Shown here: positions 5,242-7,489 of the stretch, in pieces
Position numbering within the stretch: the stretch's first letter is position 1
Layout: each line of letters begins with the position of its first letter
Origin: a virus
Strand: one strand, 5' to 3'
Length of the DNA stretch: 23,483 nucleotides
Virus genome (UHGV): UHGV-0227276
Made by a program: the position numbers and the translations under genes
Notes under the pieces: model-generated
Told to the model about the DNA's origin: nothing
The model's database searches: none
What the model saw: the letters and a program-made list of their open reading frames with translations, nothing else

Positions 5242-5751
5242 TTAAATTTCTGGTAGTTTGGGCCAGTTAATATCAGGGGCTGTGCTGATATCTATTGCTG
5301 CTACCACGTCGATATAGTCAAGAACGGAATCGAGCTTTACTGTTTCTTCCGCAGTTAATTTTCTTCCCGCCTGCAATTTTAGTTGAATCAGAACAATGGA
5401 AGACATGGCATCATCAATCAGTGACTGGCGTTGCAGTTCAGCCCCTTCCACTGCTGCGTTATGTTGCGCTTTGGTATCCGTCACCCATTTCTCACCATCC
5501 CACTTATCGTATGGTGTTAACGGAGCAATAGTGGTTGTCTTTTCAGGGTAATCTCCCGGCACTGTGATTTCTTTTGAGTCCCCCGTTTCGGTGTTATAGA
5601 CGATTTCACCGCGATGGTCTGGCACATATTCCCATGATCTCAAATCCAGAGTTCGACAAGACACATAACCTGACTTATATGAACCAGGAGCATCTAAACA
5701 CGCTCTGATTCCATCACCAACGCTACATACACGAGGGAGTATTGGTAACAC
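5242..5751 (-). CDS. G: tail fibre assembly protein (Tfa/gpG-like), 5'-rearranged: residues 18-169 are Tfa-like, the first 17 codons derive from an inverted segment
   Basis: C-terminal ...TAEETVKLDSVLDYIDVVAAIDISTAPDINWPKLPEI and central SWEYVPDHRGEIVYN resemble lambda Tfa as I recall it; codons 10-16 of the annotated N-terminus are encoded by a 20-bp inverted-repeat copy. Confidence 0.7.
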   Translation of the reverse strand: MLPILPRVCSVGDGIRACLDAPGSYKSGYVSCRTLDLRSWEYVPDHRGEIVYNTETGDSKEITVPGDYPEKTTTIAPLTPYDKWDGEKWVTDTKAQHNAAVEGAELQRQSLIDDAMSSIVLIQLKLQAGRKLTAEETVKLDSVLDYIDVVAAIDISTAPDINWPKLPEI

Positions 5752-5812
5752 AGGTGGGAGCGAAACCCGTCCACGAAATATTGCATTTAACTATATCGTG
5801 AGAGCTGCGTAA
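5723..5812 (+). other. displaced 3' end of tail fibre gene H (29 codons plus TAA), on the opposite strand to H
   Basis: Plus-strand frame continues from the repeat (LIPSPT) into [29 protein letters not shown] and ends TAATG, overlapping the start of the Tfa N-terminal fragment. Confidence 0.55.
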
Positions 5813-5952
5813 TGGATAAAGCCGTATTAAATAGCGAACTTATTGCCACGAAGGCGGGGAATATTACCGTCTATAACTATGATGGTGAAACACGGGAATA
5901 TATTTCTGAATCAACTGAATATCTTGCTGTTGGCGTCGGTATTCCCGCACAT
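5812..5952 (+). pseudogene. detached 5' fragment (47 codons) of the tail fibre assembly gene, on the opposite strand to G
   Basis: MDKAVLNSELIATKAGNITVYNYDGETREYISESTEYLAVGVGIPAH resembles the Tfa N-terminus (lambda Tfa ...[32 protein letters not shown], from memory); joining it to G codon 18 onward restores an in-frame 200-aa Tfa. Confidence 0.6.
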
Positions 5953-7489
5953 TCGTTGGTGATGGAATCAGAGTCCCTCCGGAATCGGCAGCATCAAGCC
6001 CCCGGCCTTGCGTATATGCTTTTCTGAAGATTGCCGCCAGTTCCCATTCCTCTTTTGAATCATACCCATCGTTGGCTACAACCATATGGCGGTGTTTTTC
6101 CAGCATTCCAGCCTGAAGGCTCAATAAAGCACGCCCAGCATCAATACCACGCCCATCATCCCAGCCACGAATAAACTCACCACGTAAATCAGGCAATTTA
6201 TTTGTCGGATAAACCTTTGCCAGTTTGGGATATTCTTCAGCCGAAAAAGCCGCTCCGTTGCATTTCAGCCAGCCTGTCGGTGGAGTGGCAGAAGGCCACG
6301 GAACAGGGACACCAACAGGTAATGCAGAGCCATCCCCTAAACCAAGATAATCAAGAACGCCCTGTGCGCTGGGCCTGCTAAGAATGGTACGCCCAACACT
6401 TGTCAGTGCAGTTAAGGCAGCTCGATCTTCCCCTGTAAAATAAGGGAGTTTATCTTTTGATGTAGAAAGCCCTGCCAACGCCGTTAAAGTAGCATCCTTT
6501 GGCTGCTTCCCCGCAAGGGAGTTAGTTATTGTCGTGGCAAAGTTCGGATCATTCCCCAGCGCCGCTGCCAGTTCGTTCAGCGTATCCAGTGCCGCAGGTG
6601 CAGAACCCACCATTGCTGCAATTGCCGATTTCACAAAAGCGGTAGTGGCAATCTGTGTATTGTTGACCGACTGCGCCGCCGTGGGAGCTGTTGGCGTTCC
6701 GGTGAGTGCCGGACTCGACAGCGGCGCTTTTTGTGCCAGTGCATTGTTAATGGTGGTACTGAATTTCGGATCATTGTTAATGGCTGCGGCTATTTCTTTC
6801 AGCGTGTCCAGGGTGGCTGGCGCACCATTAATAAGAGCCGTCAGAGCCGCCTGAACAAACGCGGTGGTCGCAATCTGCGTGGTGTTATTCCCTGCTGCTG
6901 GCGTTGGCGCTTTGGGTGTCCCGGTAAACGTCGGACTTTCTTTGGGTGCATACTGTGAATGCGGGTCCGGTGCGGCAAGATGTTTTGCCATCAGGTCATC
7001 CACGTACACCTTCAGCTCCAGTACCTTATCATCCACATACTTGCGGGTTGCCAGCACGACGGCAGGGTCGATTTTCAGGGTGATATTGTCCGTGCTGCTG
7101 GTTATCAGCACCATGCGCACGGTCTGGGTACGTCCGCTGCCTTCAGCCAGTTGCGGCTTATAGCTTTCCGGGCAGTTTCCCACGGCAATCAATGCCCCGG
7201 ACTCATCAAACAGGCCCACTTCACGTATCCACCAACCGCCCTCGTTTTCAGGGATCACCTGTTCAGCAATAATCTGGCTGCTGTTCTGCGGGTCGATATA
7301 GAGCATATTCAGCGCAGCCCGGCGTTTCTCATTTACCAATGCTGTCTGCTTGGCGTCCGGCGTTGGCAATGTTCCGCCGCCATCGCCGACCGCCATATGG
7401 GTAATTTTTAAAGGCACACCGAGCGCGGCGGCGCTGGCAAGTTTCGCCGCGCCAATATCCGTCAGCAGGGTATAAAATTTTGTGCTCAT
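5864..7489 (-). CDS. H: tail fibre protein (P2 gpH-like), 541 aa; last 29 codons are antisense of the detached tfa fragment
   Basis: N-terminus MSTKFYTLLTDIGAAKLASAAALGVPLKITHMAVGDGGG; internal tandem repeats; C-terminal WLKCNGAAFSAEEYPKLA...LPDLRGEFIRGWDDGRG tail-fibre domain; start overlaps the I stop (ATGA). Confidence 0.85.
   Translation of the reverse strand: MSTKFYTLLTDIGAAKLASAAALGVPLKITHMAVGDGGGTLPTPDAKQTALVNEKRRAALNMLYIDPQNSSQIIAEQVIPENEGGWWIREVGLFDESGALIAVGNCPESYKPQLAEGSGRTQTVRMVLITSSTDNITLKIDPAVVLATRKYVDDKVLELKVYVDDLMAKHLAAPDPHSQYAPKESPTFTGTPKAPTPAAGNNTTQIATTAFVQAALTALINGAPATLDTLKEIAAAINNDPKFSTTINNALAQKAPLSSPALTGTPTAPTAAQSVNNTQIATTAFVKSAIAAMVGSAPAALDTLNELAAALGNDPNFATTITNSLAGKQPKDATLTALAGLSTSKDKLPYFTGEDRAALTALTSVGRTILSRPSAQGVLDYLGLGDGSALPVGVPVPWPSATPPTGWLKCNGAAFSAEEYPKLAKVYPTNKLPDLRGEFIRGWDDGRGIDAGRALLSLQAGMLEKHRHMVVANDGYDSKEEWELAAIFRKAYTQGRGLDAADSGGTLIPSPTNVREYRRQQQDIQLIQKYIPVFHHHSYRR
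6470..6934 (-). repeat. diverged tandem duplication of about 76 codons inside H
   Basis: PTFTGTPKAPTPAAGNNTTQIATTAFVQAALTALINGAPATLDTLKEIAAAINNDPKFSTT... is followed by PALTGTPTAPTAAQSVNNTQIATTAFVKSAIAAMVGSAPAALDTLNELAAALGNDPNFATT... Confidence 0.7.

Follow-up and report, generated by a model that had tools for sequence, protein, structure and literature searches.

An apparent micro-inversion with a 20-bp inverted duplication disrupts the tail-fibre gene H and the tail-fibre-assembly gene tfa in a P2-like prophage sequence

We examined the junction between the tail-fibre gene H and the tail-fibre-assembly gene G (tfa, encoding Tfa) in the UHGV virus genome UHGV-0227276, a stretch of 23,483 nt to which we refer in its entirety as the window, with positions counted from its start. 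The window covers a P2-like Escherichia coli prophage from its late region, whose genes are on the minus strand, into part of its early region. The H/tfa junction contains two 20-nt arms, CTCTGATTCCATCACCAACG (5703-5722) and CGTTGGTGATGGAATCAGAG (5954-5973), separated by 231 nt and 100% complementary, in full agreement with the inverted repeat described in the initial annotation of this stretch. The 20-mer occurs in the window at these two sites only, and two matches were found in none of 100 dinucleotide shuffles. On its plus strand, the block enclosed by the arms carries the last 29 codons of H (5723-5809), a TAA (5810-5812) overlapping an ATG (5812-5814), and codons 1-47 of Tfa (5812-5952). 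The proposal that the beginning of Tfa lies on the plus strand is borne out by an orphan open reading frame (ORF) that includes these codons (Table 1), and, when the reading frames were rechecked, the last 29 codons of the present H and the first 17 codons of the present G proved to be antisense-derived or non-native, as had been claimed, with every coordinate and peptide holding.

A megablast search with positions 5200-6500 against 5,426 complete E. coli genomes returned 13 genomes (S88, SCU-484, MS7163, PU-1 and others) in which the region is un-inverted, at 99.1-99.9% identity. In all 13, the flanks are collinear with those of the window and lie exactly 20 bp closer together, collinearity being interrupted over the middle 251 bp. 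The initial annotation had predicted the ancestral arrangement from the letters alone, by deletion of 5703-5722 and flipping of 5723-5953, and it is indeed the arrangement found in these genomes: the region rebuilt in this way has a single mismatch to SCU-484 and two to S88 over 1281 nt, as opposed to about 210 mismatches in an alternative rebuild in which the other copy of the repeat is deleted. The rebuilt pair consists of H, a TAATG overlap and a 200-aa Tfa. In the matching genomes, the Prokaryotic Genome Annotation Pipeline (PGAP) annotates a 200-aa Tfa (WP_000356478.1) and a 541-aa tail-collar fibre (WP_000104760.1) with a one-base overlap. Alignment of the rebuilt proteins to these homologues, which had been suggested as a check, showed that the rebuilt Tfa is identical to WP_000356478.1, a sequence present in exactly this form on 375 contigs, while the rebuilt H (541 aa) differs from WP_000104760.1 only by A503S, which is due to the substitution at position 5983.

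More distant relatives are arranged in the same manner. Those at ~83% identity likewise have a span exactly 20 bp shorter than the window, and both E. coli 746 (tfaE) and phage HK97 (stf/tfa) have an un-inverted block, one copy of the 20-mer and a TAATG overlap between the two genes. Tfa of E. coli 746 and HK97 starts with MDKAVLNSELIATKAGNITVYNYDGETREYIS..., following the pattern M..ITVYNY.GETREYIS.S.EYLAVGVGIPA.SCLDAP, and the final residue of the fibre is A or V. Thus, the relatives match the rebuilt ends of both proteins, and among these homologues there is none with the present start of Tfa or the present end of H, which the initial annotation had named as observations that would speak against it. 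Since the relatives are un-inverted and have the 20-mer in a single copy, the state seen in the window is derived; the opposite polarity, with the window ancestral and the 13 genomes derived, was rejected because distant relatives, phage HK97 included, keep the un-inverted order.

Judging from the aligned sequences, the lesion is an inversion combined with a 20-bp inverted duplication. The ancestral order A-B-c-D, in which c stands for the 20-mer, has been converted into the present order A-c'-B'-c-D, with B and c flipped together and c also retained. As B+c became inverted while c stayed, the perfect 20-nt inverted repeat was made by the event itself. The inversion reported in the initial annotation as 231 bp long is confirmed in the sequence, but its true length is 251 bp (231 bp plus the 20-mer, which is also kept in direct orientation). 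Its left junction is blunt, and its right junction is ambiguous over 3 nt (CGT). Exact look-ups of the three ORFs made by the inversion (the 71-aa orphan and the present forms of H and G) gave no match (0/3) in collections of about 15 billion proteins and 153 billion gene positions. A 28-mer across the junction had no match in the genome_contigs, viral_contigs and metagenome_contigs collections, of which genome_contigs holds one genome per species and is a weak negative for E. coli. Whichever origin is assumed for the lesion, we regard it as nearly certain that it is derived, that it is not a switch, and that it destroys both genes as written.

Table 1. Coordinates of the features discussed in the text (rc, reverse complement; events are numbered in window order, the H/tfa lesion being event 2)
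Feature	Position	Strand	Remarks
Present G/tfa remnant	5242-5751	-	GTG start, 17 non-native codons, then Tfa residues 49-200
Extra inverted 20-mer copy (c')	5703-5722		Missing here in all relatives; supplies codons 11-17 of the non-native N-terminus of the G ORF
Inverted block	5723-5953	+	100% identical to the reverse complement of SCU-484 L003 7108-7338
Orphan 71-aa ORF	5812-6027	+	Tfa residues 1-47 fused to H antisense; opposite to the late operon; no Pfam match
Present H ORF	5864-7489	-	P2 gpH-type tail fibre, 541 aa; residues 1-512 native, last 29 antisense-encoded
Original 20-mer copy	5954-5973		Inside H, codons for ..LIPSPT; sole copy in relatives
Substitution	5983		A in the window, C in each of the 72 matching E. 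coli genomes; gives A503S in H; 10 nt past the repeat
Sister event 1	1-102		Reverse complement of SCU-484 L003 1305-1406 (3' end of the tape-measure gene), joined to 1508; runs off the window start
Sister event 3	20514-20879		314 nt inverted (20566-20879); 52-nt perfect inverted duplication (20514-20565 / 20828-20879); 4 nt deleted
Sister event 4	23091-23384		~243 nt inverted (23142-23384); 52-nt inverted duplication (23091-23142 / 23333-23384)
SCU-484 segments, in window order			rc1406-1305; 1508-7107; rc7358-7108; 7339-21951; rc22213-21900; 22218-24480; rc24670-24429; 24722-24820
Tape measure T	20-2926	-	
E/E'	between T and FII	-	
Tube FII	3410-3925	-	
Sheath FI	3935-5107	-	

The effect of the inversion on H is confined to its C-terminus, where the antisense-derived tail of 29 codons reads NVREYRRQQQDIQLIQKYIPVFHHHSYRR. 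Both the present and the rebuilt H match PF12571 (Phage_tail_fib) at residues 1-150 (E 1.9e-65) and PF07484 (Collar) at residues 393-440 (E 5e-14). The conserved C-terminal motif E(T/N)RP.NIA.NYI(V/I)(R/K).., which is present in the rebuilt H, H of E. coli 746, HK97 Stf, T4 gp37 (2XGF) and T4 gp12, is missing from the present H, which ends with ...QKYIPVFHHHSYRR. The 29 lost residues can be aligned with the extreme C-terminus of the T4 gp37 tip (2XGF), of T4 gp12 (ETRPWNISLNYIIK) and of another solved short tail fibre. By these alignments, the lost strand is conserved across very distant fibres, and the present H would form a fibre whose collar fold lacks the C-terminal strand completing it in the structures of T4 gp37 and gp12.

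In tfa, the opposite end of the protein is affected. Codons 1-48 are lost, and with them the ATG and the TAATG coupling to H, the overlap now being located on the other strand. No Shine-Dalgarno sequence precedes the GTG of the G remnant, and the first ATG does not occur before residue about 114. The Caudo_TAP domain (PF02413) is found in the remnant at residues 47-168 (E 4e-30), which correspond to residues 78-199 of the rebuilt Tfa, and the match to the Tfa profile phrog_105 begins at profile position 53. A search of PDB sequences with Tfa gave no informative match. According to the account in PMC9608196 that cites the Mu Tfa structure, Mu Tfa and its relatives consist of a non-conserved N-domain, which binds the distal fibre, and a conserved C-domain, which drives trimerisation; the remnant would accordingly code for a chaperone without a usable start and with an incomplete fibre-binding domain. 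We infer that no functional tail fibre would be made from the sequence as written, because H lacks the conserved C-terminal strand and Tfa lacks part of the fibre-binding domain together with a usable start. As regards the earlier suggestion that host-range determinants are probably altered or inactivated in the present state, inactivation is well supported by inference from the lost strand of H and the lost part of the Tfa N-domain.

Comparison over the full length of the window places the H/tfa lesion in a broader context. The closest match is the prophage of E. coli SCU-484, and the window can be described as eight SCU-484 segments placed end to end and alternating between inverted and direct orientation, the four inverted ones being 102-314 nt in length (Table 1). 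The H/tfa lesion is, therefore, one of at least four micro-inversions in 23.5 kb, the other three of which had been missed by the initial annotation. Event 1 alters the C-terminus of the tape measure protein T (968 aa vs 1025 aa) and holds a private substitution at position 66. Event 3 is intergenic and adjoins the upstream side of a PD-T7-1-like gene, from which it removes the longer, 469-aa start annotated in SCU-484. Event 4 lies inside replication gene A, where the ORF is 536 aa long as compared with 804 aa in relatives, and is accompanied by a deletion of 48-51 nt, depending on the assignment of junction bases. Altogether, the events deleted 4 and about 50 nt and left inverted duplications of 20, 52 and 52 nt; these three rank as the longest perfect inverted repeats of the window. 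None of the events could be found in the 5,426 complete E. coli genomes, and the 13 breakpoints showed no common motif or recombinase site. Microhomology at the seven junctions is 1, 0, 3, 0, 0, 1 and 2 nt, with a mean of 1.0 vs ~0.67 expected from random blunt joins, although seven junctions are a small sample for judging enrichment. Two simple sources of the inversions were considered and rejected: there are no ancestral repeats that could have mediated inversion, the junctions having 0-3 nt of microhomology, and an origin of the inverted pieces from a paralogous prophage does not agree with their 100% identity to the same SCU-484 locus.

Rearrangements aside, the window differs from SCU-484 by two substitutions, at positions 66 and 5983, and by the length of one A8/A9 run (10030-10037). 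Both substitutions are transversions and both are private, being found in 0/1,058 and 0/72 matching complete E. coli genomes, respectively; they are situated 37 nt (position 66) and 30 nt (position 5983) from the nearest rearrangement junction, and we calculated a chance of ~5e-4 that both private substitutions would lie within 37 nt of junctions. The homopolymer is A8 in the window vs A9 in SCU-484, where the annotated product is only 179 aa. It is located within a 243-aa ORF (9970-10701) that lies between V and S on the opposite, plus strand, matches phrog_2611 (function not assigned) and is matched by neither Pfam nor PADLOC models. Precisely this 243-aa sequence is encoded on 12 short metagenome or Logan contigs. 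Because A8 keeps this ORF open, and the ORF is also found in independent metagenome contigs, the window should be viewed as an independent sequence of good quality.

The presence of four micro-inversions in a single window makes a technical origin possible, and we favour, with a rough probability of 0.55, the reading that the lesions were introduced during sequence production. Small pieces may have been joined the wrong way round with untrimmed overlaps, or chimeric molecules or reads may have entered a low-coverage consensus. The pattern of differences is consistent with such an origin: there are four structural events vs three point differences in 23.5 kb, a ratio that is far from any natural one. 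The joins are essentially blunt, with microhomology at about the chance level, and E. coli has, to our knowledge, no classical end-joining pathway. The inverted pieces fall into a narrow size range (243-314 nt), and events 3 and 4 both display a 52-nt duplication; a common 52-nt overlap is the pattern left by a fixed-length overlap between neighbours (e.g. k-1) that was pasted the wrong way round and not trimmed. Furthermore, both private substitutions are near the ends of pieces, as errors at the ends of reads or contigs would be, and the window itself starts within an inverted piece, its end lying 100 nt past another.

Several observations weigh against a technical origin. Base accuracy is otherwise very high, and the A8/A9 run shows that the sequence is independent and of good quality. 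Clustering of substitutions at junctions is also typical of error-prone synthesis following a template switch in vivo. Chimeras produced by multiple displacement amplification (MDA), which we considered as a specific artefact, fit poorly with regard to junction complementarity: 93.5% of proximal inverted junctions in MDA show at least 2 nt of complementarity (PMC1855051), vs two of the seven junctions in the window. No specific description of a platform artefact with such a signature was found in a search of the literature, and the exact artefact or pipeline giving this pattern cannot be named.

It is quite conceivable, though somewhat less likely than not, that the same rearrangement took place in a cell, as a burst of fork stalling and template switching (FoSTeS) or microhomology-mediated break-induced replication (MMBIR), of the INVdup or dupINVdel class, that killed the prophage. 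A replication fork, or rolling-circle replication of the prophage in situ, would have stalled; the nascent 3′ end would then have jumped to a complementary template ~190-260 nt ahead, copied back past the point of departure, and switched back. The geometry of two switches per event fits, with jumps of 251, 262 and 191 nt, overshoots of 20 to 52 nt, and re-entry within ~50 nt of the landing site, and error-prone synthesis after a switch would account for both private substitutions, the only ones in 23.5 kb, falling within 37 nt of junctions. In starving E. coli, repeated template switching has been described as a source of complex inversions and duplications that arise in showers (PMC3161906), and the independence and accuracy of the window sequence likewise argue for a cellular event. 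In contrast, template switching needs annealing, whereas microhomology at the junctions is at the chance level; the polarity of the events is mixed, event 2 having its duplication on the right but events 3 and 4 on the left; the 5,426 complete genomes contain none of these events; and four events in 23 kb with almost no point divergence have no known precedent in natural isolates.

Carried further, the cellular origin leads to a proposal that we would put forward only tentatively, namely that the four blunt-ended micro-inversions, each with its inverted duplication or small deletion, are real and arose together, in a shower of template switches confined to the P2-like prophage, as a small-scale bacterial counterpart of chromoanasynthesis. 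Abortive in-situ replication of the prophage might have been the trigger, and the tail fibre, the tape measure and the replication genes would have been inactivated at once.

It is very improbable that the present chimeric ORFs, i.e. H with its new 29-aa tail, the N-truncated Tfa and the 71-aa orphan, represent functional novelties maintained by selection. H does retain an open frame of exactly 541 codons; however, its new tail takes the place of a strand that is conserved from T4 gp12/gp37 to HK97 Stf, the G remnant is started by GTG only and has no ribosome-binding site, the three chimeric sequences are found nowhere else in the protein collection, and other essential phage genes in the window are broken in a similar way.

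Least probable of all, and to our mind close to nil, is a programmed reversible segment of the Mu G, P1 C or e14 P type, acting through 20-nt crossover sites as a host-range switch or as a defence switch resembling StfE2: the site does coincide with the junction between the fibre C-terminus and tfa, where phage invertible segments reside, its inverted repeats are perfect, and a chimeric Stf made by inversion can have a function, as exemplified by the StfE2 chimeric defence protein switched on by PinQ (PMC12529663), but the second copy of the 20-mer is missing from every relative examined (S88, SCU-484 and E. coli 746 among them), only one fibre C-terminus and one tfa are available, the antisense frames have no homologues, and three unrelated sites in the window bear the same kind of lesion. 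Flipping the block back would restore H but leave a 20-nt insertion and a frameshifted tfa (...PAHSLVMESERV*). No resolvase or invertase was detected in a Pfam scan of the non-structural ORFs of the window or in the annotation of the SCU-484 prophage, a recombinase elsewhere in the genome being possible, and the repeat arms bear no likeness to the e14 crossover site TTGGTTTGGGAGAAGG. Such a switch was rejected on the grounds of the single repeat copy in relatives, the lack of an invertase and of a Pin-type site, and the out-of-frame re-inversion; the inversion in the window is non-programmed and destructive, and its interpretation as a host-range switch is effectively refuted.

Beyond H, the window continues with I, J, W and V, followed by lysis, head, terminase and portal genes, and then by a defence moron, a DinI-like gene and replication gene A. 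A 461-aa ORF (19162-20547, minus strand) adjacent to the portal gene gives a PADLOC match to PD-T7-1 (E 1e-195); this PD-T7-1-like anti-phage defence gene occupies the P2 accessory hotspot, and an identical protein is encoded in many E. coli assemblies. Closely related prophages carry other cargo that is not in the window: an AIPR family protein, a retron Ec67 family reverse transcriptase/endonuclease, or a P-loop NTPase. The AIPR family protein is found next to gene S in two of the related loci (L014/L015, 20252-21386). As far as can be judged from gene content, the differing cargo looks like exchange of defence genes at the P2 hotspot.

The H/tfa gene pair is well known, and neither origin of the lesion introduces a new system or a new host-range mechanism. 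If the lesions are technical, they serve only as a warning, as the repeats are by-products of the inversion itself; repeat-based inverton finders would call such repeats at a fibre/tfa junction a phase-variable host-range switch. If they are real, they illustrate one way to disable a prophage without any loss of sequence, and the cluster of four events would constitute a rare natural record of a template-switching burst in E. coli. The residual interest of the locus thus lies in the possibility of a real template-switching burst confined to the prophage.

Comparison with known systems shows that the S88 and SCU-484 prophages have the same gene order as the window (T, E, FII, FI, G, H, I, J, W, V), and that their intact H/tfa pair is 99.8-99.9% identical to it in DNA sequence once the inversion is undone; in the window, 251 bp are flipped, 20 bp are duplicated in inverse orientation, and both genes are truncated. 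The serine-invertase systems, i.e. Mu G/Gin, P1 C/Cin, e14 P/Pin and PinQ-StfE2 (PMC12529663), likewise have their endpoints in fibre and tfa genes, inverted repeats, and chimeric frames. Their segments, however, are 1.8-4.2 kb long and are equipped with an invertase, a conserved crossover site and a second set of fibre/tfa exons, whereas the window inversion is 231 bp between the repeats, has none of those parts, was not preceded by a repeat, and is not cleanly reversible. Stress-induced FoSTeS/MMBIR events in E. coli (PMC3161906, PMC2621351) also combine a short inverted segment with a one-sided inverted duplication and sometimes a small deletion on the other side, and share with the window the clustering of events and the point changes beside junctions. 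They differ from it in that microhomology in the window is not above chance, while a scale of ~250 nt and four events in 23 kb is unusual; for the window, an origin in vivo is only proposed. MDA chimeras (PMC1855051), like the window, contain mostly local inverted joins, in which a displaced 3′ end primes on a nearby strand, and occur at a frequency of about one junction per 10-22 kb of product; the window differs from them by its two switches per event and by nearby substitutions that are not explained by the fidelity of phi29 polymerase.

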